Notes: generated from the sequence alone by a model not told the origin. 52,949 nucleotides of DNA from Polyangiaceae bacterium (GCA_046351395.1 JAXLYP010000017.1:193508-246456), one strand, 5' to 3'; positions 5,648 through 44,918 are shown, counted from the first letter of the stretch. Numbers and translations are program-made.

Positions 5648-6859
5648 ATGCGACTCCGAAGCGCGCTCCTCCCCGCCTTGGGTGTATTGTCTGTCGCGTG
5701 TGGGGGCGGCGCCTCACCTCGTGTGCAGGAGCCGAAGCCGACTGGGCAGTGGCGGGGATCATCGACTGGGCAGTGGACGGGATCCCCGACCGGTGTGCCG
5801 TGGGGTGGCTCCATCGTCGCGGGCGGCCTTGCGATCCTGCGGAGCGGCGCGTGTCCGCTCACGGAGATCGCGCCGGGGCAGTGGGCCCAAGCGGCGTGCG
5901 CGCCCATCGTCCAGTTCAAGAACGCGCTGCCCTATCGGGCGCCACCTTTCGTGGCGAGCGCGCTCCCCGCCTATGTAGACCACCGCGCCTCGGGGCTCGA
6001 GGGCCCCGTGAAGAACCAACAGAACGTGGGCGCGTGCGGCGCCTTCTCCGTCACGACCGCGATGGAGAACGCGCTCCGCAAGCAAGGCCGGCAGGACGTC
6101 CTCTCGGCGCTCCATTACTACGTGAAGTACGGCACGGTCGCCGGCACCGGCGAGAACGGCGACGCGATCACCACGGACGCCGTCTGGCCGTACGACCCCG
6201 TGAAGGCATGCCTCTTGTCGCCCGACGAGGGCGGGGACACGTGCGATCAGGACTTCGGCGTCGTGCGGGGCGGCGGTCGCGGCGATCCGCGGTTGCGCGC
6301 CGAGCAGGCGAACGCAGACAGTCGCGGGCTCGTGCGGCTCGACCGCGCGTGGAGCATCGATCCCCGGGACGTAGACGCCATCGCGGCGATCCTCGCCGCC
6401 GGCGACGACGTCGACGCGACCTTCGCGTTCGATCGGGATGCGTGGAGCTACCGGGGGATCCAGAGCGGCGTCTTCAGCCACTACCAGGGCCCCAAGGACT
6501 ATGGTCATGGCGTCGTCCTCGCGGGGTATCGCTGGGTGAACGGAGAGCGCCAGTTCCTCATCCACAACAGCTGGGGCGCCGACTGGGCGGAGAGCGGCTA
6601 TGCGTGGATGGCGGAGAGCGACGTCCGCGCGAACCTTTGCTCGGCCTACAAGATCGATCTCGCCGAAGCGGGGACGCCGCGCCGGCCCGAGGAGACGGCG
6701 CACTATTGTCCGGGCGGGCTCCCTCCCATCGGCAACCAATGTATCCCCCTCCCGCAAGCCTCGACCGCGTGTCCGCCGGGCACGATCGGCCTTCCGGGTC
6801 TTTGTCTGCCCACCGGGGGCATCAATCCCCTCGGAGACCTCGCGCCAGGTGCGCCGTGA
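5648..6859 (+). CDS. Papain-like (peptidase C1 family) cysteine protease lipoprotein
   Basis: Lipobox LGVLSVAC. Catalytic-Cys region VKNQQNVGACGAFSV, His region YGHGVVLAGY, and NSWGADWAESGYAWM (Asn-Ser-Trp). Confidence 0.8.
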   Translation: MRLRSALLPALGVLSVACGGGASPRVQEPKPTGQWRGSSTGQWTGSPTGVPWGGSIVAGGLAILRSGACPLTEIAPGQWAQAACAPIVQFKNALPYRAPPFVASALPAYVDHRASGLEGPVKNQQNVGACGAFSVTTAMENALRKQGRQDVLSALHYYVKYGTVAGTGENGDAITTDAVWPYDPVKACLLSPDEGGDTCDQDFGVVRGGGRGDPRLRAEQANADSRGLVRLDRAWSIDPRDVDAIAAILAAGDDVDATFAFDRDAWSYRGIQSGVFSHYQGPKDYGHGVVLAGYRWVNGERQFLIHNSWGADWAESGYAWMAESDVRANLCSAYKIDLAEAGTPRRPEETAHYCPGGLPPIGNQCIPLPQASTACPPGTIGLPGLCLPTGGINPLGDLAPGAP

Positions 6860-7703
6860 GCTCGGTCGCGACGCGCGTGTGGAGCTCGAGCACGGTGAAC
6901 CAATCGATGAGCTCGATGCGGAGCGCGCTCACGGCCGACGCGGCCCGCGCCGTGTGCGCGCGGGGGACCTCCGCGAGCGCATCGAGGAACCCCATGTCCG
7001 TCCCCGCTCCGACGGTCGCGCGCTCGCCGCGCGCGGTCTCGCACTCGACGAGCCCCGCGGTGACGCGGATCCAGTGGTTCGCGACATCTCCCGCGCTCCA
7101 GAGGACGTCGCCTCGCTGAAACCGCACGTCCGTGGACGCGCTCGCGATCTCCGCGAGGCCCTCCACGTTCGCGCGCGCGATGGGCGATCTCCGGAGCTGG
7201 ATGACCCGCTCCACGACCGTCAGCTCCTCGTCCCGAAACGTGCCGTGCTCCGGCGGATCGGAGCGATTGGGCAATGGCCCGCGCTCCGCGAGGAGGTCCC
7301 GCGCGAGGCCCCGCAGCACGAAGCGCTGGAGCGCGAAATCCCGTTGGAGCGCGATCCGGACCGCGTCTCCGGGGATCTCGAGCGCGAGCGTCCGTGCCTC
7401 CGTCGTCGCGCTCAGGTGATCGCGCTCCGTGAGGAGCGCGGTGAACCCGAGCGCGCGCTGGCTCTCCACGCGGCCGACCAGGGTGCCTTCGTGCTCCACG
7501 CGCACGCTCCCCTCGAGCACGTAGAGCACGGACGTGATCGGATCGGTCGCGCGCCAGATCACCGCGCGCGGCCGAAACCGCCGGTAGCGGGAGCGCTCCG
7601 CCATGAGCAGGAGAGTGTCCACGCTGACCGATCGAAGATCGGGCATCGAGCCGAGGAGGCGGGCGCGCGCCTCGACGCTCGCGAGCTCGGGCTCAGCTTG
7701 CAT
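6822..7703 (-). CDS. Protein with two cyclic-nucleotide-binding (cNMP) domains
   Basis: Two repeats of a CAP/cNMP beta-roll pattern (…VIWRATDPITSVLYVLEGSVRVEHEG…; …VLWSAGDVANHWIRVTAGLVECE…). The start overlaps the upstream gene's end by 11 nt. Confidence 0.7.
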   Translation of the reverse strand: MQAEPELASVEARARLLGSMPDLRSVSVDTLLLMAERSRYRRFRPRAVIWRATDPITSVLYVLEGSVRVEHEGTLVGRVESQRALGFTALLTERDHLSATTEARTLALEIPGDAVRIALQRDFALQRFVLRGLARDLLAERGPLPNRSDPPEHGTFRDEELTVVERVIQLRRSPIARANVEGLAEIASASTDVRFQRGDVLWSAGDVANHWIRVTAGLVECETARGERATVGAGTDMGFLDALAEVPRAHTARAASAVSALRIELIDWFTVLELHTRVATELTAHLARGLRGD

Positions 7704-10515
7704 GCGGAGTGTCTCGTGGTGCAGAAGGGAACAGCGACGTCGAGGACGGAATCGAGGCTCGGCGCGTCACCTCCGGCGCCTCGGGTTCGGCCGCGCGATC
7801 GGGAGCTCCAGCGAGGAGGGCGCGGGCGCGCGAGAAGTCGGTCACGTCCGGCTCCTCCCTACAGAGCTCCTCGATCCGCGGGAGCTGACTCGTCATCCCG
7901 AGCTCCGCCGCGTGATAGGCAGCGAACTTGCGGAGGATCGCGCTCGAGCTCCCCAGCATCTGCGCGATCGCCGTCTCGTAGTCGAGATCCACGGATGCAT
8001 GGAACTCCTTCCCGCGCGTGCGTCGCTCGACGTCGTCGACGTCATCGACGAGCCCGATGACGGCGTCGCGCAGCGGATTCTTGAGGACGATGTGGATGAG
8101 CTCGACGGCGGTCGCGCGGTGCTCCTTCCCGCCCCGCTCGATGCTCGTGAAGATCGCGTCGATCTCCTCGTTCGGGTTGAGCAGCGCCAGCAGCCGGAAC
8201 ACGCGACCCACCATGTGTCGCTGCTTGTCTCGCAGCAAATCCACGAGCAGGCCGTGCCCGACCGTCGCTCGGCGTGGGTCCTCCTCCCGCCCGCGCCGGA
8301 GCGCGACGAACCGATCGAAGGACCGGTAGGCGCGGGCGACCGTGCGCTGGATCTCCTCCCCGAGGAGGCGCTCGTCGAGGCGCGTCTCGGGCCGCGCGAC
8401 GACGATCTGTCCGAGCGCGAGGATCGAGCGATACCGCACCATCCCATCGGGCTCCTGTCCGAGGTTCGCGAGCAGGATCTCGGGCGCCTCGGGCGAGTCG
8501 ATGTCCGCGAAGAGGCTCGGCACGAGCCTCCGCACCGCCCGCGGGCGATCCCGATCGCGGAGCGCGCGGACGATCGCGCCCGCGCCCGCGGGGCCCGCGG
8601 CGCTCAGCGCGAGGCGGACGTCCGCGCCCACCTGACTGTCTGCGAGCAGGTCGACCAGGGTGTTCGCGGACGTCTCGGTCGCGAGCCCGCCGAGCGCCGC
8701 GATCGCCGCGCGGCGGACGTCGAGCTCGCGCGCGCGCGTGAGCTCGACGATCTCGGGCTCGAAGCGGGTCGCCTTGCGCCAGCCGACGACCTCGGCCAGG
8801 AGGCGCCGGCTCTCCACGCTGCCCTCCGAGACGATCCGCCCGAGCTCGTGGTGAGCCTCTTCCGCCTCCATCATGGAGAACGCAGCCATCGTCGTGAGGA
8901 TCGCCGCGCGGATGTCCGGCGAGGTCTCCCGCGCGAGCTGCTCTCTCCACCGCGTCGCGTCCGGCGCGAGCACCGCGCGAGCGGCCATCGCCTCGGCGCG
9001 GACGCGGATGGAGGGGTGGCGATCCAAGTGGGTGAGCGCGTGGAGCGCGACCTTCCGACCGCGCACGCCGAAGATCCGGAGCGCGGTCACGACGACGGTC
9101 TCCGACGGGTGATACAGGATGAGCCCCGGGATGACGTGGGCCTTCCCCTCCCGATCCAAGATCCGTAGCGAAGACACGACCGTGCTCTCCGCTTCGCTCT
9201 CGAGCGACTCGAGGAGCGACTCGAGGGAGGCCATGTCGAGCCGCATGAGCGCGCCCGCGAGCCGCCTCCGACCGGACGCGAGGGCGTCCTTGAAGAGCTG
9301 CGCGTAGTCGCCTCGGAGCCATGTCGCGAGGACGACCGCGCCCGCGGCCGTGACGACGAGGAGGACGGCGAGCCATCGCGGTGGCAGCTCGGTCGCCACC
9401 CCGACGAGGATGACGACCGAGCCCACCATCTGGGCGCCCCGTTGACCGAGCGCGTCCATGAAGCTCTTGGCGACCGTCCGCGGACCGTCCTCGAGGGGCA
9501 CGAGCAGGAGCTCCGCGGCCGTGCGGTGCACGCTGAAGCGCATGCTGCCGTCCACGGCCTTCGTGATCACGGCGGGCGCGAGCGTGCCCGTGATCGCGAC
9601 GCCGAGGCCCCCGGCGACGAGCCCGAACGGCAGCACCGCGAACACCAACGGGAGAGGCAAGCGCGCGACGAGCGATCGGACCGCGAACACCTGAACGCAG
9701 ACCGAGATCACGTTCAGGACCACGTTCACGCGGCCGAACACGCGCGCGAGCTGGTCGTGCGCGAAGTGGGCGGTGATCTGCGACTTGAAGATGAAGTCCG
9801 AGATCGTGACGGCGATCGTGATGAGGCCGCAGACCGCGACCACCCGTCGGATGTAGGGGTGGCGAAGGGCCGTGCCGAGGCGCTCGCCGAGCGTCCCGTC
9901 GCGCCCGTCGTGCTCGCCGTCGCGCGCGCGTTCGTCGAGGCCGCCGCTCGAGAACAGCATCGGCATCCAGGCGGCGCCGAAGAACAGCACGCCCGCGAAG
10001 AGGGAGAGGTTCGCCGGCGCGACCCACGTGACGAGCCCGACCGCGCCGCTGCCGAGGATCGCGCCGAGCCCGGCTCCGAGCCCGATCATCCCGTAGAGCC
10101 GTTTGGCCTGGCGAATCGAGAAGAGCCCTCCAACGAGGGACCAGAAATGGATGAGGACAATCGTCGAGAGGACGCCCGACCAGATGTAGAAGACATAGAG
10201 CCCGACCTCACCCAGGCTCGGCAGCGCACGGGAGAGCGCGATCGTCCCGAGCGACGAGGCGACCGTCCAGCCGATCAGCACGCGCCGCGGCGTCGTGCGC
10301 CGGAACACGGCTTGGGCGCGCGTCGCGACGAGCGTCGCGGCGGCGAGCGCGACGTACACCCAAGGGAGTCGGCTCGTCGGGATGTGGGCGAGGAACATCG
10401 CGTCGCGCGTCGCCTCGAGGATGCTGTGGCCGGCCACGAAGACGAACAGGAAGACAAAGGCGGTGATCGCATCCCGCCGCTCCGATCGCCGCACCGGGAA
10501 GAGCCGCCGCAGCAC
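7693..10515 (-). CDS. TLC-family (ATP/ADP-translocase-like, Npt-type) membrane transporter fused to a C-terminal HEAT-repeat domain
   Basis: 940 aa. The N-terminal ~430 aa are multi-TM and carry the family-typical block HFWSLVGGLFSIRQAKRLYGMIGLGAGLGAILGS (compare Rickettsia Tlc FWQFANQIT..AKRFYSMFGL). The C-terminal half has HEAT-like repeats (…RRAAIAALGGLATETSANTLVDLLAD…). GTG start is 1 nt after the upstream stop. Confidence 0.8.
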   Translation of the reverse strand: MLRRLFPVRRSERRDAITAFVFLFVFVAGHSILEATRDAMFLAHIPTSRLPWVYVALAAATLVATRAQAVFRRTTPRRVLIGWTVASSLGTIALSRALPSLGEVGLYVFYIWSGVLSTIVLIHFWSLVGGLFSIRQAKRLYGMIGLGAGLGAILGSGAVGLVTWVAPANLSLFAGVLFFGAAWMPMLFSSGGLDERARDGEHDGRDGTLGERLGTALRHPYIRRVVAVCGLITIAVTISDFIFKSQITAHFAHDQLARVFGRVNVVLNVISVCVQVFAVRSLVARLPLPLVFAVLPFGLVAGGLGVAITGTLAPAVITKAVDGSMRFSVHRTAAELLLVPLEDGPRTVAKSFMDALGQRGAQMVGSVVILVGVATELPPRWLAVLLVVTAAGAVVLATWLRGDYAQLFKDALASGRRRLAGALMRLDMASLESLLESLESEAESTVVSSLRILDREGKAHVIPGLILYHPSETVVVTALRIFGVRGRKVALHALTHLDRHPSIRVRAEAMAARAVLAPDATRWREQLARETSPDIRAAILTTMAAFSMMEAEEAHHELGRIVSEGSVESRRLLAEVVGWRKATRFEPEIVELTRARELDVRRAAIAALGGLATETSANTLVDLLADSQVGADVRLALSAAGPAGAGAIVRALRDRDRPRAVRRLVPSLFADIDSPEAPEILLANLGQEPDGMVRYRSILALGQIVVARPETRLDERLLGEEIQRTVARAYRSFDRFVALRRGREEDPRRATVGHGLLVDLLRDKQRHMVGRVFRLLALLNPNEEIDAIFTSIERGGKEHRATAVELIHIVLKNPLRDAVIGLVDDVDDVERRTRGKEFHASVDLDYETAIAQMLGSSSAILRKFAAYHAAELGMTSQLPRIEELCREEPDVTDFSRARALLAGAPDRAAEPEAPEVTRRASIPSSTSLFPSAPRDTPHAS

Positions 10516-10516
10516 G

Positions 10517-11965
10517 TCAGAACCCCGTCGTCCCGCCGACGAGGAACCGGACGCTCTCGGGCTCGCCGCCCTCCGCGAACGGCTTCGTCCCGAAGCCCAA
10601 GAGGAGGTTCAACGCGTGGTCACGGTGATTCGGCGATTGGAACCCCCCGACGAACGAGAACCGGAGTCGCTCGAGTTCGAAGTCCTCGAAGTCGCGCCCG
10701 AACACGTTCCCCACCTGCGCGCGGAGCGTGGCGTCGACGAACGACCAGATGGGCCAGGTGTACGTGACGCTCGCCGCGGCGGACGTCTCGCCGAGGAGGC
10801 GCCCGGGGGTGAAGCCGAGGAGGGGCTCGTCGTCGGGCACGCGATCGGTCCGACCGCTCCCGATGAGCTCCGTGAACGGCACGCGCGCCGTGCTCGAGAA
10901 GGGCTCGATCGCGCGGACGTCCACGAGGAGCCCGAGCACGCGCCGCGTCCCCGTGACGTCGATGAACCCGCCCACGGACCCGCCCACCTGCGCCCACTCG
11001 ACGTGCGACCCGACGTCGCTCCCGAGCTCGGCGTGCGCGTCGAGCCCGACCCCGGAGCCCGGCCCTGGGCGCGGCTGTCGCGAGTCGAGCACGACGCGCC
11101 CACCGACCTTCACCGCGGTGTATCCGGCGAACCCGTCGGGGAGGGGATAGAGCCCTCGAGCGACCGCGCGGGAGATGGGCAGCGTAGGACACTCGTGTGG
11201 CCATACCGGGCAGCTCTCGTCGGAGAACGAGTGGTGCCGGACGACGGCCCAAGCCTCCACGAAATTGGCCTTTCGCGGCTCCACGTGGGTCCGAATGCCG
11301 CCTCCGACCGAGCGCTGCTCGAACCTCGACTCGTCCGCGTAGCGAGACCGGTACCCCACACCGTAGAACAGGTAGTCGGCGCGGACGACCCCGTCCGCCT
11401 CGAGCTGCAGGTTGGAGCGCACGCGGTGAGAGCCGTCGGGTTCGACCTCGACGTCGAGCGGGACGCGGTCGACCACGCGAGCTGCGAAGTACCTCTCGCC
11501 CCCCGTCGCGACCGACGCGCGGAGTTGATTGTCTGTCACGAGGAAGTCGTCGTAGAAGTGGTAGAGGCCGACGCTCGGACGAAAACCGAACTCGTAGAAC
11601 GCCGTCGGGATGAGGCCCACGTTGTGGTGAGGGCCGAACGTGAAGAAGTCGGTCACCTTCGCCACGATGCCCTCGCGGTCGATCACCGTGGTGATCGCGC
11701 CGAGGGGGCGCCGGATGACGTAGTCCGAGACCACGTAGAGCGGCGCGAAGAGGACGCGGGGGATCCAGAGCGCGCCCTCCGCCGCGGTCGTCTCGCGCGG
11801 TCTGCCCTCGTAGTCCTGCGGTGGGCGCTTCTCTCCGGGCGGCCGGGATGGATCCTCGGGGAGCACGGCGGGGTGCTCGGGGACGTCCCCCCGCGCCGGG
11901 GGCGCCGCCGCGAGGGCAGCGCCGAACGCGAAGACCATGGCACCGAGCGCCTTGGGCGAGTTCAT
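10517..11965 (-). CDS. Outer-membrane beta-barrel protein (paralog of 23156-24616)
   Basis: Signal peptide MNSPKALGAMVFAFGAALAAAPPARG. Alternating beta-strand patterns. C-terminal ...RFLVGGTTGF* (terminal Phe OMP signature). The start overlaps the upstream stop (ATGA). Confidence 0.75.
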   Translation of the reverse strand: MNSPKALGAMVFAFGAALAAAPPARGDVPEHPAVLPEDPSRPPGEKRPPQDYEGRPRETTAAEGALWIPRVLFAPLYVVSDYVIRRPLGAITTVIDREGIVAKVTDFFTFGPHHNVGLIPTAFYEFGFRPSVGLYHFYDDFLVTDNQLRASVATGGERYFAARVVDRVPLDVEVEPDGSHRVRSNLQLEADGVVRADYLFYGVGYRSRYADESRFEQRSVGGGIRTHVEPRKANFVEAWAVVRHHSFSDESCPVWPHECPTLPISRAVARGLYPLPDGFAGYTAVKVGGRVVLDSRQPRPGPGSGVGLDAHAELGSDVGSHVEWAQVGGSVGGFIDVTGTRRVLGLLVDVRAIEPFSSTARVPFTELIGSGRTDRVPDDEPLLGFTPGRLLGETSAAASVTYTWPIWSFVDATLRAQVGNVFGRDFEDFELERLRFSFVGGFQSPNHRDHALNLLLGFGTKPFAEGGEPESVRFLVGGTTGF

Positions 11966-13779
11966 TGGAGGGCCGCGCCCGGCTCGTCGGGCCTCTGGAT
12001 GGCGACCATCTTGAAGTGGGAGGACGCCCCGAGATCGTACAAATGAACGCGCAGCGGACCCCGCGCCGCGCCGTTCGAGACGTCGAGCACCGCGTATCGA
12101 AGGGGGTGATCGTCGGGCAGCGAGCGGTCGTCCACGACGCGCGGTAGATCCACGCAGACCGTCGCATCGTCGCCGAGGCTGACGGGGAGGGCCTTTCGCT
12201 GGTCGAGGTCGAGCCCCGTCCGGAGCTCGGCGGCGTACGTGAACCGCGTCCTCGGCCAGGTGGTCGTCTTGTGCGCGAGATCGGTCGCGCAGACGCGGTC
12301 GCCCTCGACGGTCACGTCCGCCAGCGGGGATACGACGCTGAAATACCGCGTGAGGATCTCGTCCCTTCGTTGGATGAGTGTCCGCGTGAGGAACTCCGTC
12401 GCGCGAGGGTCCGTGTAGTCGCCGACCCGCACCGCGGCCGCGATGTTCGCGTCGGTGAAGCGCGACAGGATGCGCGCCGCCCACGCGCCGTCCTCCTCCG
12501 TCATGCGAGCGAACGCGGGGTTCGGGTAGCCGCCCTTCCAGTCCTCGGGCACGAAGTCCGGCCTGAAATAGTCGAACATCGGGAGCTCGGTGTTCGCGAC
12601 GGGCCGGTCCCATGGGCGCTCGAACGAGCCGAGCGTCAGGAGGTCGATCGCCACGTCCTCCGGATCGAAGTAGTAGCTGTGGTTGATCCTCCGGTTCCAG
12701 CTCTCCCATTGCCAATGGCTGCCAAAGCAGTCCCCGAGGTCGATGTACCAATGTGTCGTCCGCCCCGGAGAGGAGTCCTTCGACTCGGGGTCCACGGCGT
12801 CCCAGGTGGTCATCGTGTTTTGCTCGCGCGAATCGAAGTGCCCGAGCCACGCGGCCATGAGCCGCGCTCCGCGGAGATCCCTTCGGTCCTCGTGAGGGAT
12901 GATGTCGTTGGGATCGTCTTCTCGCGTCTCCTCGTACCGGAAGGGGCCGATCGCGCGTCCTGGGAGCCACCGCGACGCCACCATTCGTACGAGCCCACCT
13001 CGCTTCTGTGCGCTGTCGAGGATCGCCTGGAGCTTCCCGTCGTCGAACGGCATTTTGGTGCCCGTATTGTCTGCGTAATCGAGCCCGGGCTCGAGCCTGA
13101 GCCAGGACTTGTCGACGTAGACAATCGTGTCGCACGCGGTCCACCAGCCCGCGGCGTGGTAGAGCCTGGACGCGATGGATGTCGCCCCGGTCGCCTTCTC
13201 GCCTTCGCCCTCGGCGTCTGCCTTCAGCATGAACTTGCCGACGCCCTCGATCTCGACCCGAAAGCCCGGGTTCGCGCCGTTCGCCTTGCCCATGTCGACG
13301 CGCCAGGCGCCCGGTTCGTGCGGGGCCGTGGCGATCGTCTTGTGGCCGCAGCTCCCGCGCGTGATCTCCTCGTCGGTCATCGGCCTCACGCCGATGCGGT
13401 TCGTGAACCAGCTCGAGTCGGGCACCTCGTCGACCGCGTTCACGTTCCGCGCAGCGAAGCCGACGTCCGCGGCGAAGAACTTCACGATGGGCCGGAAGAT
13501 GGTCTTGTCGGCGACGTCCCATAGGAACGGGGACTCGTACTCTTCGGGCCGACAGAGTTGCTTCTTCGCGTCCTTCGGATCGGGGCGACACGGCACTCGG
13601 ACCGCCCGCAGATCCTCGTCGATCCAGACCGGGTCGCGGAGCGGGAACCGCCGGATGCCACCGCACCCCGCGACCGAGGTCGCCGCGCCGCTCGCCAGCG
13701 CCGCGCCGATCACGACTCGGCATGCGGCTCGCAGAATCTTTACGGCCCCCGCCTCGCGATGAGCCCACCGAATCGCCAT
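11962..13779 (-). CDS. Lipoprotein with atypical kinase-like (PKL/PI3K/CotH-like) signature
   Basis: Lipobox ATSVAGC. Candidate nucleotide-binding Lys (GKFMLKAD), catalytic-loop-like LMAAWLGHFDSREQNTM and DFG-like WYIDLGDCFG. 605 aa, non-repetitive, high GC3. Confidence 0.6.
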   Translation of the reverse strand: MAIRWAHREAGAVKILRAACRVVIGAALASGAATSVAGCGGIRRFPLRDPVWIDEDLRAVRVPCRPDPKDAKKQLCRPEEYESPFLWDVADKTIFRPIVKFFAADVGFAARNVNAVDEVPDSSWFTNRIGVRPMTDEEITRGSCGHKTIATAPHEPGAWRVDMGKANGANPGFRVEIEGVGKFMLKADAEGEGEKATGATSIASRLYHAAGWWTACDTIVYVDKSWLRLEPGLDYADNTGTKMPFDDGKLQAILDSAQKRGGLVRMVASRWLPGRAIGPFRYEETREDDPNDIIPHEDRRDLRGARLMAAWLGHFDSREQNTMTTWDAVDPESKDSSPGRTTHWYIDLGDCFGSHWQWESWNRRINHSYYFDPEDVAIDLLTLGSFERPWDRPVANTELPMFDYFRPDFVPEDWKGGYPNPAFARMTEEDGAWAARILSRFTDANIAAAVRVGDYTDPRATEFLTRTLIQRRDEILTRYFSVVSPLADVTVEGDRVCATDLAHKTTTWPRTRFTYAAELRTGLDLDQRKALPVSLGDDATVCVDLPRVVDDRSLPDDHPLRYAVLDVSNGAARGPLRVHLYDLGASSHFKMVAIQRPDEPGAALQ

Positions 13780-21070: not shown

Positions 21071-21078
21071 ACCGCGAC
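21071..21078. repeat. Target-site duplication (right copy), ACCGCGAC
   Basis: See the left copy. Confidence 0.85.
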
Positions 21079-21719
21079 AACCTCGGGAACTTGAACGTGC
21101 TGACGGCGCTCATCGGTCACCAAGACGACATTGGAGTGAACTTCTACCGGTCGAAGGACGCGGCGCGCCCGCGGCTATTGTCTGTCGACAATGGGCTCGC
21201 GTTCGGCGCGATGGGAGACAATCCCATTCGGTTCTTCAGCAGCGCATGGAGCGACGTGCGAGTCCCGCTCCTGCCTTCGAAGACGGTGGACAGGCTCGGC
21301 TCGGTCGACCGGGCGCGCCTCGAGCCCCTCGGCGTGGTCGCGCAGATGCGCCTCGAGGGCGGCGCGTTCCATCCCATCCCACGGACGCCGACGCTCGATC
21401 CGAACCAGGCCGTGCGCTGGAACGGGGACGACGTCCAGCTCGGGCTCACCGCCGAGGAGATCACGGACGTCGATGTCCGGCTGGCACGGCTCCTCGGCGC
21501 GATCGACTCCGAGGAGGTCCAGCGCGGTCGTCCCCGCGAATCGAAGTGATCGCTCGCTTCGAGGGGAGATCGCTGCCGACGATCGACGTCGCCGAGGAGG
21601 GCGGTGCGCTCGCCACCTCGGCGTGGGTCGAAAGTGCCTCGACTTGGCACCCAAATGCCACATCGAGCCGCCCTGCGAGCCCTCCTCGGGCTGGTGCGCG
21701 AATCGCATGAGCACCAAGG

Positions 21720-23159: not shown

Positions 23160-24616
23160 GGACACCGGGGGCGAGCCTCACCCTCGTCCTCGTGTGCGCG
23201 CTCGCGGGCAGGTCCGCGACGGCGCGCGCGGACGGCGCGAGCCCCCCCGCGCCGCCGCCGCACCCGTCGACGCTCCCAGAGGACGCGCGCCGCGCCCCGG
23301 GGGAGAAGCGCCCGCTGCAAGAGTACGAGGGGCGCCCGCGCGAGACCACGACCGCGGAGGACGCCCTCTGGGTCCCACGCGTCCTCCTGTTCCCCGCGTA
23401 CCTCGTCTCGGAGTTCGTGGTTCGGAGGCCGCTCGGCGCGATCGACACCGCGCTCGAGACGGGCTCGACGGGCGGCCGGCTCATCGACGTGTTCACGTTC
23501 GGACCGCGCCACAACGCCGGTTTGGTCCCGACCGCGTTCTACGACTTCGGGTTCCGTCCGAGCGCGGGGCTCTACCTCTTCTACGACGACTTCCTCGCGA
23601 CAGACAATCAGCTCCGCGCGGCGTTCGCGACCGGCGGAGAGCGGTATTTCAGGGCGCGGGTGGTGGACCGAATCCCCCTTCACGTCGTCCGGGGCGAGGA
23701 CGGCGAGCACGAGGTCAGGGCGAACCTCCAGCTCGAGCTCGCTGGGCTCGCGCGGCCCGACCATCGGTTCTACGGCCTCGGCTTCGGATCGAAGAGCGCG
23801 CACGGATCGGAGTTCGAACAGAGATCGGTCGGGGGAGGAGTCCGCTTCCGCGCGGAGCCCTGGAGGTGGTCCTTCCTCGAGTCTTGGGTGCTCTATCGGC
23901 ACCACGACTTCTCGGATGGGGGGTGCGACGCACGCCCGTCGGACTGTGATCACCCGCCGATCTCATGGGCCATCGAGAGGGGCTGGTACGCGGCGCCAGT
24001 GGGCTTCGACGGATACCAGACAATCAAAGTCGGCGCGCGAGCGGTGGTGGACACGCGCCCGGATCGACCCGCGCCGGGATCGGGCGCGGGCTCGGAGATC
24101 CGCTTGGAGCTGACGAACGACACGCGCGGCGGGGAGTGGGCGGAGGGGGGCGCCACCGTGGGCGGCTTCCTCGATCTCACCGGGACGCGGAGGGTCCTCG
24201 AGCTGACGCTCGACGTGCGCGCCCTCGAGCCGCTCTCGTCGGGAACGGCGATCCCGTTCACCGAGCTCGTCGGCGCGGCCCGCATGGATGGAATCCTCGA
24301 GGACGGCGTGCTGCGCGGGTTCATCGCGGGTCGCCTGCTCGGAGAGAGCTCCGTGGTGGCCTCGCTCGGGTATTCGTGGCCCATCTGGGCCTGGGTCGAC
24401 GCCACTCTGCAAGCCCAAGTCGGCAACGTGTTCGCGCACCGGCTCGCCGATTTCGCGCCGGAGCGGCTGCGGTTCTCGTTCGTCGGCGGCTTTCGATCAC
24501 CGAATCACCGGGACCACGCGCTCAACGTGCTGCTGGGGTTCGGGACCGAGCCGTTCGCCGACGGCGGCTCGCCGGAGAGCCTGCGGTTCCTCATCGGGGG
24601 CACGACCGGGTTCTAA
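23156..24616 (+). CDS. Outer-membrane beta-barrel protein (paralog of 10517-11965)
   Basis: The GTG start overlaps the TLC stop (GTGA). Signal peptide …LVLVCALAGRSATARA. Long collinear identity blocks with the paralog (FTFGPRHNAGLVPTAFYDFGFRPSAGLYLFYDDFLATDNQLRA; RLRFSFVGGFRSPNHRDHALNVLLGFGTEPFADGG). Ends GGTTGF*. Confidence 0.8.
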   Translation: MRTPGASLTLVLVCALAGRSATARADGASPPAPPPHPSTLPEDARRAPGEKRPLQEYEGRPRETTTAEDALWVPRVLLFPAYLVSEFVVRRPLGAIDTALETGSTGGRLIDVFTFGPRHNAGLVPTAFYDFGFRPSAGLYLFYDDFLATDNQLRAAFATGGERYFRARVVDRIPLHVVRGEDGEHEVRANLQLELAGLARPDHRFYGLGFGSKSAHGSEFEQRSVGGGVRFRAEPWRWSFLESWVLYRHHDFSDGGCDARPSDCDHPPISWAIERGWYAAPVGFDGYQTIKVGARAVVDTRPDRPAPGSGAGSEIRLELTNDTRGGEWAEGGATVGGFLDLTGTRRVLELTLDVRALEPLSSGTAIPFTELVGAARMDGILEDGVLRGFIAGRLLGESSVVASLGYSWPIWAWVDATLQAQVGNVFAHRLADFAPERLRFSFVGGFRSPNHRDHALNVLLGFGTEPFADGGSPESLRFLIGGTTGF

Positions 24617-24653
24617 CGACGAGGGCGCCGGGGTACTCTCCGCGGTCACGCCG

Positions 24654-26075: not shown

Positions 26076-27797
26076 GTGGCCGACGCGCAGACCGAACGCT
26101 GCGAGGGATGTGGCGCCGAGCTGACCGCGGGCGCCCGCTTCTGCGCGACGTGTGGGCGCCCGGTCGCCGCGCTCGCTCCAACCGAGCTGCACGCCCCGAG
26201 GTTCGACGCGACCCCCGCGATGCGCCTCGCGCCGGGGACGATGCTGGGGAGTTACCGGATCGAGGCGCTCCTCGGCGAAGGCGGGATGGGCGTCGTCTAC
26301 CGCGCGCGCGACGAGGTCATGCACCGCACGGTCGCGCTCAAATGTCTGCACACGAACCTCGCGGGGGACGCGGGGATCCGCCGGCGCTTCGGGCGAGAGG
26401 CGCGCGCGCTCGCGACGGTCGTGCACCCGAACGTCGTGCGCGTGTACGACTTCGTCGATCACGAGCACGTCCCCGCGATCGTCATGGAGCTCGTCGACGG
26501 ACCGAGCCTGTCCGCGCACGTCGCGGCGTGGCGTGAGTCCGTCCCGTTCGAGGAGATCCGCGGCCTCTTCGGGCAGATCCTCGCCGCCGTCGGCCACGGG
26601 CACGACAACGGCATCATCCACCGCGATCTCAAGCCAGACAATGTGCTGCTCGCGCGGGAGGCGCGCGGGCTCCGCCCGAAGGTCGTGGATTTCGGGCTCG
26701 CGAAGATCCTCGAGGGGACGACGTACACCGTCACGGGCGCCCTCCTCGGGACGTGCCGGTACATGGCGCCCGAGCAGGTGCAGGACCCGGAGCGCGCGGA
26801 TCTGCGCGCCGACATCTATTCGCTGGGCGTCACCCTCTATCAGCTCGTGACGGGGAGCGTGCCCTTCGATCGGGCGACCCACTTCGCGGTCATGATGGCG
26901 CACGTCAACGAAGCACCGCGCCCGCCATCCTCGATCCGCGCGGACGTCCCTGCGCTCCTCGAGCGCCTCGTCCTCGACGCGCTCGCGAAGGATCCGAGCG
27001 CGCGCCCTCCCTCGTGCGCCGTGTTCCGCGAGCGGCTCGACGAGGCGCTCGCGGCGTACGAGCCGGAGGACGCACCGCCGGGCTCGCTCCCGCGCGTCGT
27101 GCGAGGGGCGGAGACGGCAGATCTCGTGCTCGTGCCCGAGGGTCCGTTTCTCTTTGGCCCGCACCGGCGCCGCGTCGATTTGGACGCGTTCTACATCGAT
27201 CGGACGCCGGTCACGAACGGCGAGTTCGCCGCGTTCGTGAGGGCCACGCGATATGCGCCGTCGGACGAGGGGAGCGGACGGTTCCTGCATCACTTCCGGG
27301 GTGGGAAGGCGCCCGTCGGCGCGGAGCATCACCCGGTGACGCACGTCTCGTGGACCGACGCGCGGGCGTACGCGACGTGGGCGGGCAAGCGACTCCCGAC
27401 GGAGGCGGAGTGGGAGAAGGCCGCGCGAGGGACGGACGGACGGAGGTACCCATGGGGCCGCGCGGAGCCCACCGCGGATCGCGCGAACTACGGGAAGCTG
27501 AACGGTGGAACGACGCCCGTCACCGCGCACGCCGCGGGAGCGTCACCGTACGGTGTGTTGGATCTTGCGGGCAATGTCTGGGAGTGGTGCGAGGACGTCG
27601 ACGATCCCGCGTTTTACCTCGACGGTCCTACGCGGAACCCGAAGAACGCGCCGCGCGCGGGCGAGCGCGCGCGGCACGTGGTGCGCGGCGGCTCCTGGCT
27701 CTACGGCCCGCGCGCCCTGCGCACGGTGTACCGCGCGAGCTTCGAAGCGCACTATCGCGTCGCGAGCGGCGGATTCCGCTGCGCGCGCTCCGCCTGA
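26076..27797 (+). CDS. Ser/Thr protein kinase with N-terminal zinc-ribbon and C-terminal FGE-sulfatase (SUMF1-like) domain
   Basis: CEGCGAELTAGARFCATCG; kinase motifs GEGGMGVVYRA, VALK, HRDLKPDNVLL, DFGLAK, APE. FGE domain: PVTHVSWTDARAYATWAGKRLPTEAEWEKAARG, GNVWEWCED, VVRGGSW. Confidence 0.85.
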   Translation: MADAQTERCEGCGAELTAGARFCATCGRPVAALAPTELHAPRFDATPAMRLAPGTMLGSYRIEALLGEGGMGVVYRARDEVMHRTVALKCLHTNLAGDAGIRRRFGREARALATVVHPNVVRVYDFVDHEHVPAIVMELVDGPSLSAHVAAWRESVPFEEIRGLFGQILAAVGHGHDNGIIHRDLKPDNVLLAREARGLRPKVVDFGLAKILEGTTYTVTGALLGTCRYMAPEQVQDPERADLRADIYSLGVTLYQLVTGSVPFDRATHFAVMMAHVNEAPRPPSSIRADVPALLERLVLDALAKDPSARPPSCAVFRERLDEALAAYEPEDAPPGSLPRVVRGAETADLVLVPEGPFLFGPHRRRVDLDAFYIDRTPVTNGEFAAFVRATRYAPSDEGSGRFLHHFRGGKAPVGAEHHPVTHVSWTDARAYATWAGKRLPTEAEWEKAARGTDGRRYPWGRAEPTADRANYGKLNGGTTPVTAHAAGASPYGVLDLAGNVWEWCEDVDDPAFYLDGPTRNPKNAPRAGERARHVVRGGSWLYGPRALRTVYRASFEAHYRVASGGFRCARSA

Positions 27798-35062: not shown

Positions 35063-35103
35063 CACGGGGGCGTCCGATGGACGTTCCCTTCACGCCAAGC
35101 CCA

Positions 35104-35850: not shown

Positions 35851-36203
35851 GCGGCGAATCAGAACAGGAGCGGCGCCAACGCGAAAGGTGAATGGCGGCG
35901 GGAGCCCGTGGGAGCGAGCTGCCGCCCGAGATCGTTCAGGAAACCGCGCGTCGGTTCAGGGCGGCCGCGCCCAGCGCGATCCTTCAGGGCGTAGCTCGTC
36001 CGCCGCGAAGGTCTCCACAGGGTCGTCGCTCGAGGGCGTCACTCCACGGAGCAGACTCAGGCCACCGGTGTAGTCCAAGGACCACGCGCGCCATTGTCTG
36101 CATACCCAGTGTCGATCGCGTCATCACGCCCGGGTGTCCGCGCGGGACTCGCGGTGGCGAGCGCGTCGTCCGACTGGAGTATCACCGAGCGGGCCGGCTC
36201 TCT

Positions 36204-36223
36204 GACAGTATGGAAATCCATGG
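36204..36223 (+). promoter_or_regulatory. 20-bp conserved element, copy 1 (GACAGTATGGAAATCCATGG)
   Basis: One of three near-identical elements in the 35851-36679 intergenic region. Contains the inverted repeat ATGGA-AA-TCCAT. Confidence 0.5.
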
Positions 36224-36333
36224 TAGTGCGTGGTGACGGCAGCGCGCTTCGAGCGCAGTCGGCGTGATAGGGAGAACCCTTGGTTCGGTGCGCGTGAAAC
36301 GAACCCGCGCCGATCGGGCGCGCTGGTCGCCGA

Positions 36334-36353
36334 GACAATATGGAAATCCATGG
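36334..36353 (+). promoter_or_regulatory. 20-bp conserved element, copy 2 (GACAATATGGAAATCCATGG)
   Basis: As copy 1. Preceded by gcgctggt, as is copy 3. Confidence 0.5.
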
Positions 36354-36403
36354 GTTTGGTGAGCCGGATAGGCGGTTCTCGGGACGCGCTGGTTCTTTCC
36401 TCA

Positions 36404-36423
36404 GACAATATGGAAATCCCTGG
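36404..36423 (+). promoter_or_regulatory. 20-bp conserved element, copy 3 (GACAATATGGAAATCCCTGG)
   Basis: As copy 1. Followed by an A8 run at 36449-36456. Confidence 0.5.
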
Positions 36424-36679
36424 GCGGCGCGCACGAACGTGGCCGCCGAAAAAAAAGGCGCAGGAATCCCTCCATGGCGGGGACGAGGAATATCTCTCTC
36501 GCTCCACGACGGTCGCGCGCATTTCAGGTGTGTTGGTTTGATGGGTTGCAATGGACGCAATCGCTGCGGACGAATGCAGGTCTTGCGCGTCTCGCGTCTG
36601 CCGTGAAGTACCCCCCTTGGGATGGAGTCTAGCGCAGGAGGCCGTCGTCGTGGTGTGAAAGCTGCAGCCGCTGAGGGGC

Positions 36680-37753
36680 GTGACGACCTCCATTCCGCCA
36701 GCGTTCGACGAGGCGCTCGACCCTGCTCCGAGATGTGAGGACGCCGTCGCCATCCTGGACGCGCTCAGCGCTGCGGTGCTCGCGGCGCGCTCCGACGGCG
36801 TCATCACGTGGGCGAACCCATGGGCTGCGCGCGTCCTCCGGCGCTCACGGGCCTCGATCATCGGGCGAAACCTCGCGGATGTGCTGCCTCTCTCGTTCGC
36901 GGTCGGGGAGGACACGCCCTCGGAGCACCGCCGCGGTGAGCTCACTTATCAAGCGGACGACGGCTCCCGTTGTCAGCTCGGATTTTCGCTCGCTCGGCGG
37001 GCCGTCACGGCGCCGGACGAGGTCGCCATCATCGCGCTGTTCCAAGAGATCTCGAGCCTCATCGAGCTGCGACGCCAGCGCGATCGACTCCTCCAGATGG
37101 CGGCGCTCGGGGACGCCCTCCCAGCGGTGCTCCACGAGGTCCGCAACCCGCTCGCGGCGATCACCACGGCGCTGGAGGTTTTGACCGAAGACGAGGGGCC
37201 GCTGCAAGCGGATCTCCACGCGGTTCTGAACGAGGCGCGCCGCGCCACCCTGACGCTCGACGGGCTCGGGGGCCTCGCGCGCGAAACCCACAGTCGGAAG
37301 TGGGAAGCCATCGATCACGCGGTCGCGGAGGCCACCCGAGTGCTCGAACCCACCGCCGCGAGGCGGGGTATTTCCCTTCGAACGACGGGGCCGGCGCTCC
37401 CGCTCCTGCCGCTCGATCGCGCGGCGATCAGCGGCGTGGTGTTCAATCTCGTGCGCAATGCCATCGACGCGTGCGGCGAGGGTGATGTGGTCGCCGTCGA
37501 GGCCCGTTTGCCGTCGCCGAACGAGTTCCTGCTCGAGGTTCGCGACACGGGCCATGGCATGTCCGTTCCCATCGTGAAGCGCTGCACGGAGCTCTTCTTC
37601 ACGACGAAGGATACCGGGTCTGGGATTGGGCTCGCATTGTGCAAGCGGTTCGCGGAGTCGTCGGGAGGATCGCTGGAAGTGGAGAGCGAACTCGGGCGGG
37701 GGACGACGGTATCGGTTCGCGTCGCTCTCCGCACCGACGCACGAGGAGGGTGA
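36680..37753 (+). CDS. PAS-domain sensor histidine kinase
   Basis: PAS-like N-terminus (AILDALSAAVLAARSDGVITWANPWAARVL). H-box LHEVRNPLAAI. N/G boxes VFNLVRNAIDA, DTGHGM, GSGIGLALC. Confidence 0.85.
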   Translation: MTTSIPPAFDEALDPAPRCEDAVAILDALSAAVLAARSDGVITWANPWAARVLRRSRASIIGRNLADVLPLSFAVGEDTPSEHRRGELTYQADDGSRCQLGFSLARRAVTAPDEVAIIALFQEISSLIELRRQRDRLLQMAALGDALPAVLHEVRNPLAAITTALEVLTEDEGPLQADLHAVLNEARRATLTLDGLGGLARETHSRKWEAIDHAVAEATRVLEPTAARRGISLRTTGPALPLLPLDRAAISGVVFNLVRNAIDACGEGDVVAVEARLPSPNEFLLEVRDTGHGMSVPIVKRCTELFFTTKDTGSGIGLALCKRFAESSGGSLEVESELGRGTTVSVRVALRTDARGG

Positions 37754-37754
37754 C

Positions 37755-38120: not shown

Positions 38121-38266
38121 ACCCGTTCGAGAAGCGAGCAGATCCCCGGGCCCGGGCGCGACAAAGCGTCATCGGGGTGACGCCCGAGCGTCATCGTTTT
38201 GACAGTCTTCGCGCGATCCACGCGTTAGAACGTACCCAACAGCCGATCGATAGGAGGGGGTCTTCG

Positions 38267-39026: not shown

Positions 39027-40158
39027 GTCCCCGCGCCGCACCGTGCTCGTCGTGGAGGACGAGCCGATGCTGCGCGCCTCGATGGTCAAGGGGCTCGCGA
39101 AGCTCTCGTCGGTCGCGCTCGTCGACGCCGGCTCGCTGCGAGAGGCGCGGCGACTCGCCGAGCTGCACCGCCCCGTGCTGGTCGTGAGCGATCTCGACCT
39201 GCCCGACGGCTCGGGGATCGAAATGGCGTCGACGCTCGACGAGCTCGGTCTTCGCGTCCCGATCCTGTTCGTGTCGGCCTACGTGCGGGAGTACCAGGGG
39301 CGATTGCCGAAGCGGCCGGGGATCGAGGTCTACGAGAAGCCGCTGCCCCTCGAGCGCCTTCGGAGCGCGGTGGAGGCGCACCTCGGGATCGAAGCCGAGG
39401 CTTCGCCGTTCGGTGTGATCGACTTCGTCCAGCTCGCCGGCATGGGGCGGCGCTCGGTCGTCATCGAGGTGCGAGGCCGGATCGCGGGGAGCGGGCGAAT
39501 CGTCATCCGCGCGGGCGAGGTGTGGTCGGCGCGCGACGAGCGGGGCGAAGGAATGGAAGCGTTCAAGCGCCTCGCGTTCCTTCGGGACGCGGTCGTCACG
39601 TGCCGCTCGTTCGATCGTCGCGACTCGTCTCCTCGCATCATCCAAGGGGGCTGCGAGAGTGTCCTGCTCGAGGCGGCGCGCCAGTACGACGAAGCGGGCG
39701 GGGCGCCGCCGGAGCGCGACGAGCTCGGCGACCTCGACGAGGGCTGGGACTCCCGAGACGCGGGCCGCGGTGACAGCTGGGAAGGCTCCGCGCGGTCGCA
39801 CGACCCCGTCGTCTCGTCCACGCCGGTGCCGCCCGGCCGGCATCGGTCCGAGGTTCGCCCGGTCGTGCCGGAGCCCCGAGGGGAATGGCGCTCCGCGACC
39901 CTGACGCCCGCGGTCGACGAGCCGCCGCCGACTCAGCCCTCGACGCGACTTCGTGACGTCGATCCGCGCGAGCTCGCGACGGTCGCACGGCTCGCGGCGG
40001 GGTTCTCCGACGTGTACGAGCGGGGCGTCGACGCGCTGCTCGCGAAGGACTATCGCAAAGCGTACGCGGCGTTCCTCGAAGCGCGAGAGCTCTCGCCGGA
40101 GGACCGGCGGGTCGAAGCGAACCTCGTCCGCCTCCGAGAGATGGGGTTCGGAACGTGA
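39004..40158 (+). CDS. Response regulator: receiver + DUF4388 domain + TPR-like C-terminus
   Basis: TVLVVEDEPML…VLVVSDLDLPDGSG (receiver). FGVIDFVQLAGMGRRSVVIEV…IVIRAGEVWSARDERGEGMEAFKRL (DUF4388 pattern). C-terminal YRKAYAAFLEARELSPED. Confidence 0.75.
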   Translation: MVTASPLESPRRTVLVVEDEPMLRASMVKGLAKLSSVALVDAGSLREARRLAELHRPVLVVSDLDLPDGSGIEMASTLDELGLRVPILFVSAYVREYQGRLPKRPGIEVYEKPLPLERLRSAVEAHLGIEAEASPFGVIDFVQLAGMGRRSVVIEVRGRIAGSGRIVIRAGEVWSARDERGEGMEAFKRLAFLRDAVVTCRSFDRRDSSPRIIQGGCESVLLEAARQYDEAGGAPPERDELGDLDEGWDSRDAGRGDSWEGSARSHDPVVSSTPVPPGRHRSEVRPVVPEPRGEWRSATLTPAVDEPPPTQPSTRLRDVDPRELATVARLAAGFSDVYERGVDALLAKDYRKAYAAFLEARELSPEDRRVEANLVRLREMGFGT

Positions 40159-40817
40159 GGCGCGCCGCGTTCGCCGTTCCCGGAGAGGAACTCGGAGTAT
40201 GGGCGCCCGCCACGCTCCTGTCGTGCGGCGCCCTGGGCGCGGTCGTCGTCGCGGTCCTCCTCGGATCCCCCGCCGTCCCCGCGGAGGCGAGCTCGATGTC
40301 GCGCGCGACGCCGGGCGCGGAGGGCGCCGCAGCGACGGTGTCCACGGACGCGATCCGCCCGCCGACCGCGCCGTCGATCGCGCCGCCGCCGCCTGCACCG
40401 AGCGCGATCGCTGCACCCCCGGGCCCCTCGGGGTCGGGCGGGGCGATCCCTCAATGTCCACCCGTGCGGGTGGGCTTCCAATCGAACGCGTTCGGCCCGA
40501 GCCCCGCGGCGATCACCGAGCTCGACCGGCTCGCGGCGTGGCTGCGCGAACATTCGGACACGACGCTCGTCGTGAGCGGGCACGCCGACGCGGTGGGCAC
40601 GGAGGACGGCAATTTGCGCCTCAGTCACATCCGCGCGGAGTCGATCGCGCGAGAGCTCTCGGCGCGAGGGGTGGCTCGGAGCCGCATGACGGTGCGGGGG
40701 TATGGAGCCTATCAGCCCCTCGAGGGCGTGCTCGAGGACGCCGCAGACAATCGAAGGGTCGTCATCTATGTCCGCGGGGATTGTCTCCGCGGCTTCGAGG
40801 AGGTCATAGGACCATGA
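40155..40817 (+). CDS. OmpA-family (peptidoglycan-binding OmpA_C-like) protein
   Basis: The GTG start overlaps the RR stop (GTGA). TM/signal, Pro-rich linker, then VVSGHADAVGTEDGNLRLSHIRAESIAREL…GYGAYQPL…DNRRVVIYV. Confidence 0.75.
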   Translation: MRRAAFAVPGEELGVWAPATLLSCGALGAVVVAVLLGSPAVPAEASSMSRATPGAEGAAATVSTDAIRPPTAPSIAPPPPAPSAIAAPPGPSGSGGAIPQCPPVRVGFQSNAFGPSPAAITELDRLAAWLREHSDTTLVVSGHADAVGTEDGNLRLSHIRAESIARELSARGVARSRMTVRGYGAYQPLEGVLEDAADNRRVVIYVRGDCLRGFEEVIGP

Positions 40818-41746: not shown

Positions 41747-41797
41747 TCCGCGGAGGGGCGCGGGCCGGCCCCTTGGACGCGGGGCAAACACACCCCG

Positions 41798-42376: not shown

Positions 42377-42384
42377 GCGCGGTT

Positions 42385-43820: not shown

Positions 43821-43845
43821 GTTCACAATAGTGAACCACGTTCAC
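43811..43845. promoter_or_regulatory. Two adjacent palindromes (putative TetR operators) overlapping the tetR start
   Basis: TGTGAATCATGTTCACA (43811-43827) and GTGAACCACGTTCAC (43831-43845). Both have GTGAA(C)-N-(G)TTCAC symmetry. Confidence 0.55.
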
Positions 43846-43972
43846 GTTGGTGTCAAGCGGGGAGGGATGAAAGGGTTGGGGAGGGATGAACGAGTTGGGG
43901 CGTACGCTCGTCAGACGCCATGCGAACGTTCCCCGCGTCGCGGGATTCCTCCCAGCACTCGAACGACCCCGG

Positions 43973-44728
43973 ATGACGCGCTTCTCTCGAACTTCAACGT
44001 GGGCGATGTGCGCGCTGATCCTCGCGGGGTGCGGCGGCAGTCCCGCGCGTGTCGCGGGGGACCGCGGTCCGAGCGCGTCGGCGAGCGTGGCGGCGAATCC
44101 ACCCGGGGCCACGAGCGCGCCCGAGCCGGTGGGAGGGGACGGCGAGCGGGTCGTGGCGGGCGAGTCGCCCGGGACTCCCGTGATCGCGCCGCCGCCCCCG
44201 GAGGAGCCGCGCCCCGCGCTGCTCTCGACGTGTGAGGAGCGCCGGAGCATCGTGATCCACAAGGCGGAGCGGACGTTGGAGCTTCGATGCGGGGACGCGC
44301 TCGCGGCGCGGTTCGCGGCGTCGCTCGGGAATGCGCCGGAGGGCGCGAAGCAGCACGAGGGGGACGGGCGAACGCCGGAGGGGGACTACTTCATCAGCAT
44401 GAAGTACCCGAGCCAGTACCATCGGTCGCTCCAGCTCGCGTATCCGAACGTCGCGGACGCGGACGCGGGGCTCGCGAAGGGGACGATCAAAGCGACGGAG
44501 CACGCGAAGATCGTGCAGGCGTACGCCACGTGTCGCGAGCCACCCCAGACGACGGCGCTCGGGAGCTTGATCCAGATCCACGGCGGCGGCGGCGGTCCGG
44601 ACGTGGGCGATTGGACGCTCGGTTGCGTCGCCGTGGACAACGACGAGATCGAGGTGGTGTTCGCGTTTCAAAAGCCGGGGTGCGACGCGCAGAATCGCCC
44701 GAACACGCTCGTCCGAATCCTTCCTTGA
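43973..44728 (+). CDS. L,D-transpeptidase (YkuD-domain) lipoprotein
   Basis: Lipobox LILAGC. HEGDGRTPEGDYFI, IQIHGGGG, WTLGCVAVDNDEI (catalytic His/Cys context). Confidence 0.75.
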   Translation: MTRFSRTSTWAMCALILAGCGGSPARVAGDRGPSASASVAANPPGATSAPEPVGGDGERVVAGESPGTPVIAPPPPEEPRPALLSTCEERRSIVIHKAERTLELRCGDALAARFAASLGNAPEGAKQHEGDGRTPEGDYFISMKYPSQYHRSLQLAYPNVADADAGLAKGTIKATEHAKIVQAYATCREPPQTTALGSLIQIHGGGGGPDVGDWTLGCVAVDNDEIEVVFAFQKPGCDAQNRPNTLVRILP

Positions 44729-44918
44729 GGGGCCGACCGCTCCCACGGGCATCGCGGATTGTCTGTCACGCCGCGGGCGCGCGCTCGCTCGGCGGTCGAC
44801 GCGGCGGTGGGACGCGCGCACGCGGGGTCGTTCTCGAGGTGGGGCGGGCGCCTGACGGGAGGCTCGGGAGGCGGTCGACGCGTGCAGCGGGCTGCGCGGA
44901 ACGCGCTATCGTCGACGT

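Follow-up and report, generated by a model that had tools for sequence, protein, structure and literature searches.

Exact words that recur in a genome far beyond expectation are rare, and each of them, whether the DNA uptake sequences (DUS), the uptake signal sequences (USS), Chi, or HIP1, has either revealed a dedicated DNA-recognition machine or remained a puzzle. The DUS of the Neisseriaceae (ATGCCGTCTGAA) and the USS of the Pasteurellaceae (AAGTGCGGT core) are short, non-palindromic, exact words, over-represented tens- to hundreds-fold, which accumulate by molecular drive. They are equally frequent in both orientations, sit in genes by way of codon choice as well as in spacers, are compositional outliers, and occasionally occur as inverted pairs. 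The HIP1 octamer of cyanobacteria (GCGATCGC) is hyper-abundant in some lineages, lies inside genes against codon preference, and has a function that was long unsettled. Here we analyze the word ATTGTCTG (reverse complement CAGACAAT) in a 52,949-base stretch of DNA (70.0% G+C), referred to below as the window, from a metagenome-assembled genome (MAG) annotated as a Polyangiaceae bacterium (locus tags U0414_). The word is a real and statistically very strong feature of this sequence, and its properties appear, by analogy, closest to those of the uptake sequences and of HIP1.

The window holds 11 exact copies of ATTGTCTG, six on the plus and five on the minus strand, each of them correctly placed by the first-pass annotation. 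Dinucleotide-preserving shuffles of the window contained 0.31 copies on average and two at most, and the excess is about 35-fold. Markov models of orders 0, 1, 2, 3, and 4 predicted 0.34, 0.34, 0.12, 0.19, and 0.93 copies, respectively, while orders 5 and 6 are circular for this word, since their sub-words are mostly the motif itself. Among all 8-mers of the window with at least five A/T bases, ATTGTCTG is the commonest, and with 37.5% G+C inside a 70% G+C genome it is a compositional outlier. The base before TTGTCTG is A in 11 cases and T in three, never G or C, and 19 of the 27 TGTCTG hexamers (about 70%) follow two A/T bases, close to the three-quarters reported at first.

The excess is confined largely to the exact word. 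Its one-mismatch relatives, when pooled, number 25 against 11.7 expected, which is an enrichment of just 2-fold, and variants at the edge positions (AATGTCTG, ATTGTCCG, and ATTGTCTC) are modestly enriched. Such a contrast, about 35-fold for the exact word and 2-fold for its neighbors, is typical of exact-word recognition and unlike a degenerate operator matrix. The variants AATGTCTG and TTTGTCTG noticed in the first pass do occur, although the coordinates given for them were 0 to 2 bases off. There is a weak extension of the word to (G)ATTGTCTG(TC): the five copies said to extend to ATTGTCTGTC do so, while the further extension to TC(G/A)C holds for four of the five, the copy at 21177 reading TCGA. 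The flanks are otherwise unrelated, save for two copies in paralogous genes (11528 and 23601), which occupy homologous positions and thus leave 10 independent copies. The 11 copies are spread evenly (3, 3, 3, and 2 copies per quarter of the window) over at least nine unrelated genes or spacers within 39 kb. Each kb holds on average 0.21 copies of the 8-mer and 0.30 of the 7-mer ATTGTCT.

Eight copies are coding according to a gene map built from codon statistics, and three, at 36093, 36402, and 44758, are intergenic, as had been claimed. This amounts to 8 copies in 42.6 kb of coding DNA versus 3 in 10.3 kb of uncalled or non-coding DNA, where the density is about twice as high. When synonymous codons were shuffled within genes, only 0.18 to 0.21 coding copies were expected instead of eight (P of about 1e-10.6), and in a ranking of all 8-mers against this codon-aware null ATTGTCTG was the top outlier. 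The other A/T-rich words high in that ranking (GATTGTCT, TTGTCTGT, AATGTCTG, and TGTCTGCG) are overlapping or one-mismatch relatives of ATTGTCTG, and the remaining high-ranking 8-mers are G+C-rich and just about two-fold over-represented. These results support the proposal that it is the DNA word, and not the protein, that is under selection, and the observed count is approached neither by the codon-aware null (0.2) nor by the Markov models (0.12 to 0.93).

A general preference for the codon pair GAC-AAT, the alternative named in the first pass, does not explain the word. Asn after GAC is indeed written AAT in 8 of 14 Asp-Asn pairs, compared with 18% AAT overall (P = 0.001), but six of these eight GAC-AAT pairs also follow a codon with A in its third position, against a background of 5% (P = 4.5e-7). 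Sites at which the protein reads [S/T/P/A]-Asp-Asn are nearly filled, five of the six being written NCA GAC AAT with rare codons, and the single Gln-Thr-Ile site bears the word as well. Sites that demand at least three unfavorable codon changes are nearly empty: none of the four R-Q sites (AGA-CAA) and only 2 of the 30 x-L-S-x sites (xxA-TTG-TCT), the copy at 5686 among them, carry it. A constant, site-independent pressure acting against codon cost would give just this pattern of occupancy. In seven of the eight coding copies all departures from the preferred codons are synonymous, which leaves the proteins intact, and most coding copies can be derived from the preferred-codon version CGGACAAC by one G>A and one C>T transition. 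The rare codons listed in the first pass, GTA TTG TCT (5686), CTA TTG TCT (21177), and ACA/GCA/CCA GAC AAT, had all been read correctly. The copies do fall in different reading frames, as was also said, but not evenly, since five of the eight share the frame NCA-GAC-AAT.

Two of the coding copies encode Leu-Ser. The one at 5686..5693 (+) reads GTA TTG TCT G in the sense direction and lies in the signal peptide (…GVLSVAC) of the lipoprotein gene 5648-6859, whose start was set at MRLRSALLPALGVLSVAC; the one at 21177..21184 (+) reads CTA TTG TCT G (LLSV) in the open reading frame 21091-21549(+) and is part of ATTGTCTGTCGACAAT, with another GAGACAAT 30 nucleotides (nt) downstream. Five copies encode x-Asp-Asn. 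Those at 11528..11535 (+) and 23601..23608 (-) are the homologous pair, both written ACA GAC AAT (TDN), in the BamA/TamA-like genes 10517-11965(-) and 23156-24616(+). The copy at 13066..13073 (+) is GCA GAC AAT (ADN) in gene 11962-13713(-), and the copy at 40744..40751 (-), also GCA GAC AAT, encodes the ADN of an OmpA-type …ADNRRV motif in gene 40155-40817(+). At 26635..26642 (-), CCA GAC AAT encodes PDN within HRDLKPDN, the catalytic loop of the kinase, in the Ser/Thr kinase-FGE gene 26076-27797(+). The last coding copy, 24017..24024 (-), is CAG ACA ATC (QTI) in gene 23156-24616(+), where the protein sequence differs from homologue to homologue. The intergenic copies are at 36093..36100 (+), at 36402..36409 (-), and at 44758..44765 (+), 30 nt past the stop codon of gene 44006-44728.

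Both orientations of the word are over-represented. In the synonymous shuffle, sense CAGACAAT was found 6 times versus 0.19 expected and sense ATTGTCTG 2 times versus 0.03, so that each orientation is separately enriched about 30- to 70-fold in coding DNA. The 16 sites of the 7-mer ATTGTCT are divided equally (8 plus and 8 minus), and the intergenic copies are of mixed orientation. Codon constraints alone predict about 7:1 in favor of sense CAGACAAT, and the observed 6:2 matches this expectation; the sense bias is therefore uninformative on transcription or replication. A sense-strand RNA signal was rejected on the same ground.

The word was then sought outside the window. The nearest relatives in the collections searched share 60 to 70% protein identity with the window genes. 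In 108 kb from seven Polyangiaceae loci, comprising kinase orthologues (L081-83), BamA-like relatives (L084-85), and two loci of the MAG GCA_046351325.1 (U0271), ATTGTCTG has no copies; the U0271 MAG, a Polyangiaceae genome of similar G+C content, contributes 43 kb to this. At the kinase PDN, where the window has CCA GAC AAT, the three orthologues have CCG/CCC GAC AAC. A scan of a genome collection with the kinase gave 80 loci with 29 copies versus 28 expected, the best relatives being 53% identical, and only 1 copy was found in 207 kb of loci with more than 68% G+C, showing that the word is rare in other high-G+C DNA. In metagenomes, 67 contigs were found in which the word forms part of the coding sequence of a kinase catalytic loop; their flanks were not enriched (6 versus 7.3 expected). 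Two homology searches for paralogues elsewhere in the same genome returned only the window proteins themselves and orthologues from other organisms, and an all-versus-all BLAST inside the window revealed few paralogues. As far as can be seen, ATTGTCTG is restricted to this lineage.

A related word was noticed in one relative. The 2.6-kb contig L084 (Logan SRR14092372), which holds the nearest relative of the BamA-like gene (60% identity), has GATTGTCGG twice, at positions 743 and 2215, against about 0.014 expected from composition, and one of these copies is orthologous to the TDN copy of the window and coded ACC GAC AAT CGG. It may hint at a related "dialect" in a neighboring lineage, 2.6 kb being far too short to judge.

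The explanation that we favor, though with low confidence, is that ATTGTCTG is a lineage-specific, orientation-independent recognition word that accumulates by molecular drive, in the manner of DUS and USS. The word, working in either orientation and spread through ordinary chromosomal genes and spacers, would be favored at a sequence-specific step of DNA uptake or recombination, at which fragments that carry it would have an advantage. Mutations that create the word at a low cost to the protein would then tend to spread, and the drive could fill nearly all the sites where the protein already fixes six of the eight bases (x-Asp-Asn), despite the strong G/C codon bias. A spread over the whole genome, the drive itself, and the link to DNA uptake are what we infer by analogy from the pattern in the window.

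The likeness to known systems goes only so far. DUS and USS occur about once per kb, a density 3 to 5 times higher than that of the word (0.2 copies of the 8-mer or 0.3 of the 7-mer per kb), and the pairs described below are 28 to 54 nt apart inside genes, not at terminators. We know of no sequence-specific uptake in Myxococcota, the host phylum, and none of the relatives available, at just 60 to 70% protein identity, shares the word, unlike the family-wide dialects of DUS and USS. Because of the lower density and the absence of the word from relatives, we do not claim membership in the DUS/USS family. TGTCTG is also found in the "wadDUS" dialect and GTCTG in the canonical DUS, a similarity judged by eye and probably a coincidence. 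HIP1 differs in being palindromic, G+C-rich, linked to a cognate methyltransferase, and common to many cyanobacteria, while ATTGTCTG is asymmetric, A/T-rich, and so far found in a single lineage. Other observations weigh against accumulation by drive: the 40 window proteins that were scanned include neither a competence protein nor a pilin receptor, and the data consist of 53 kb from a single MAG. Literature searches found nothing on uptake sequences in myxobacteria and no relevant paper on either orientation of the word, the lone match being a plant transcription factor.

Some features of the window fit a DNA-binding protein at least as well as they fit uptake-driven accumulation. Among the 27 sites of the hexamer ATTGTC, four neighbor gaps are at most 60 nt (P = 0.007, with a statistic chosen post hoc), the pairs lying 10 to 54 nt apart. 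Three exact copies have an inverted partner that matches seven of the eight bases, 28 to 44 nt away, and these partners too are written in rare codons. The copy at 13066 is paired with ATTGTCTA at 13118..13125 (-), 44 nt off, read as ATT GTC TAC with the rare Ile codon ATT; that at 21177 with ATTGTCTC at 21215..21222 (-), sense GGA GAC AAT; and that at 40744 with ATTGTCTC at 40780..40787 (+), read as GAT TGT CTC. In addition, ATTGTCTGTCGACAAT, around the copy at 21177, is a 6-4-6 dyad. A further ATTGTCTC, at 51025..51032 (+), is in a stretch without a called gene.

The intergenic copy at 36402 belongs to a 24-nt direct repeat present three times on the plus strand, at 36200, 36330, and 36400 (36200..36423), the successive starts being 130 and 70 nt apart. 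Its consensus is CTC(T/A)GACA(G/A)TATGGAAATCC(A/C)TGG, and its core, ATGGAAATCCAT, is a 5-2-5 inverted repeat. Two of the three repeats hold (C/G)AGACAAT: the third (CTCAGACAATATGGAAATCCCTGG) contains the exact copy, and the second contains a seven-of-eight match at 36332..36339 (-), which reads GAGACAAT on the plus strand. The array is 260 to 480 bp upstream of a PAS histidine-kinase gene, 36680-37753, and looks like a set of putative regulator binding sites; the 24-nt element, although it overlaps the word, is probably regulatory and distinct from it. A sigma-54-like TGG…TTGCA was seen by eye at about 36533-36549, with a spacing that departs from the consensus by one base. Scans with Rfam and for tRNAs, promoters, and terminators detected nothing associated with the copies.

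The main rival, which we hold only slightly less probable than accumulation by drive, is that an abundant protein with sequence-specific DNA binding, for instance a global regulator or a nucleoid-associated protein, uses the word as its site or half-site, with each site kept by selection of its own. The clustering of pairs is the best argument for such a role, and the ATTGTCTGTCGACAAT dyad, the two copies in the repeated element upstream of the histidine-kinase gene, the two-fold higher density outside called genes, and the modest enrichment of the edge variants point in the same direction. On the other hand, 8 of the 11 copies are deep within genes, and they show no consistent placement relative to start codons or promoter-like sites. 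The near-saturation of the synonymous sites (five of six) is hard to explain by a regulatory benefit at each site, and the word is non-palindromic and far sharper (35-fold versus 2-fold) than typical operator matrices.

Another explanation is that the word arises as a side effect of sequence-specific modification or repair. It would, for instance, be the target of an asymmetric methyltransferase or restriction system, and context-dependent mutation or biased mismatch repair would turn near-matches into the word. Its asymmetry is that of Type III, IIS, and BREX targets, and the G>A and C>T changes from CGGACAAC have the direction of cytosine deamination. The half-converted form ATTGTCCG is enriched (5 copies), and GTTGTCTG has none in the window. 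We nevertheless regard this origin as improbable. The class RTTGTCYG, which pools the forms related by transitions, is itself in excess, with 17 members in the window versus 1.5 expected from the 108 kb of relatives (11-fold; P = 5e-13, or 3e-6 with the upper 95% rate of the relatives), so the excess cannot have arisen from transitions alone, be they true mutations or artefacts. Copies that use the rare codon TTG for Leu, like those in intergenic DNA, cannot be reached by two transitions from common sequence. Moreover, restriction targets are usually avoided rather than enriched, and Vsr-type repair drives toward C:G, not A/T.

A polar signal of recombination or segregation would be Chi (GCTGGTGG in E. 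coli), acting with RecBCD/AddAB, or the FtsK-orienting polar sequences (KOPS) and SpoIIIE recognition sequences (SRS). Like these, ATTGTCTG is an over-represented, non-palindromic word of 8 bases; it is G+T-rich, and with one copy per 4.8 kb it is similar in density to Chi of E. coli (about one per 5 kb). From the left, the first four copies are on the plus strand and the following three on the minus strand. However, this run mirrors the orientation of the genes, as codon constraints would have it, and the intergenic and 7-mer copies on one side of it are mixed. Chi, KOPS, and SRS are strand-polar with respect to replication and only few-fold enriched, whereas ATTGTCTG is enriched more than 30-fold in both orientations. 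The GC skew has no clear switch at 13 to 23 kb, where the orientation of the coding copies changes, and no replication-origin function was detected in the 40 proteins scanned against Pfam. Given the enrichment in both orientations, the mixed intergenic copies, and the lack of a clear skew switch, we reject a Chi/KOPS-type signal as very unlikely, as the first-pass annotation had also argued.

It is just as hard to credit that the word is an error of assembly or base calling, in which, for example, a methylated motif of the GTTGTCCG type would be systematically misread by nanopore sequencing (G>A/C>T). The word is known from one assembly only, and the 246-kb source contig and a 1.77-Mb contig of the U0271 MAG (GCA_046351325.1), which was taken to be of the same submission on the basis of a similar locus-tag prefix, suggest long reads. 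Methylation motifs do cause G>A and A>G nanopore errors, which can mimic single-nucleotide polymorphisms (SNPs), but in current data these affect a minority of the motif instances (bioRxiv 10.64898/2026.01.14.699587). The U0271 MAG has no copies in 43 kb, which makes a generic artefact of the pipeline unlikely, and neither the excess of the RTTGTCYG class nor the synonymous, protein-preserving nature of seven of the eight coding copies is what miscalls would produce.

The remaining candidates were rejected. A repetitive extragenic palindromic (REP) sequence, a miniature inverted-repeat transposable element (MITE), or another dispersed repeat is contradicted by the lack of conservation past the core and by copies that encode conserved protein motifs, such as HRDLKPDN, and a MITE with the word as its terminal inverted repeats is contradicted by inconsistent pair arrangements and by in-frame positions within conserved protein sequence. 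Stoperators and other multi-copy asymmetric operators, such as those of cluster A mycobacteriophages, resemble the word in having many asymmetric sites per about 50 kb, some of them intragenic, but a phage origin was rejected, since the gene content is chromosomal and the first 25 kb, which were searched, gave no phage match; in addition, the orientation of the word is independent of transcription once coding constraints are considered. The resemblance to a DnaA box or a Pho box amounts to just 5 bases in common, by eye.

The Pfam scan of the 40 predicted proteins identified the window genes as those of an ordinary chromosome. They include a Ser/Thr kinase fused to an FGE-sulfatase domain, two BamA/TamA-like paralogues, TLC/MFS transporters, PAP2 phosphatases, a type VI secretion sheath gene, a histidine kinase, an OmpA-like protein, and a TetR-family regulator; the window proteins U0414_27325 and U0414_27390 are annotated "MAG: hypothetical protein". 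The BamA/TamA-like paralogues, 62% identical, are part of a gene cassette duplicated in inverted orientation, at 7693-13713 (-) and 21804-26060 (+), which consists of a TLC/MFS(-HEAT) transporter, the outer-membrane protein, and a protein of no assigned family. The relative L085 has the same cassette order plus a cNMP-binding gene. The lipoprotein encoded at 5648-6859 has a papain-like (Peptidase_C1) domain, and the word in its signal peptide/lipobox (GVLSVAC) occupies three rare codons. In the region 29637-31615 (-), the type VI secretion sheath gene TssC/VipB (30263-31615) has a small gene without a Pfam match (29637-30266) downstream of it on the same strand. No gene was confidently called at 19600-21090 and 49909-51921; a long open reading frame at 50299-51897 was left uncalled by the codon model, and its exact product was not found in the protein collection. 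The GC skew jumps to +0.15 at 44 to 48 kb and falls to -0.11 at 48 to 52 kb (window positions 44001-52000), the change coinciding with a change of the gene strand.

Returning to the word as a product of molecular drive, what sets ATTGTCTG apart is that it is A/T-rich in a 70% G+C genome and overrides the codon bias at nearly every cheap site. A Polyangiaceae lineage may have evolved its own genome-wide "self" word, spread by biased uptake or recombination and young enough for sister lineages to be without it, a scenario that we consider speculative and somewhat unlikely. In practical terms, the word could help to bin metagenomic contigs of this lineage or to assign sequences to it as host. If it extends genome-wide, it would provide a clean case for how such words arise and would imply a new sequence-specific DNA-handling protein in myxobacteria. 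If the scenario is true, this would be the first uptake-sequence-like system outside the Neisseriaceae and Pasteurellaceae, in a phylum without known sequence-specific transformation.

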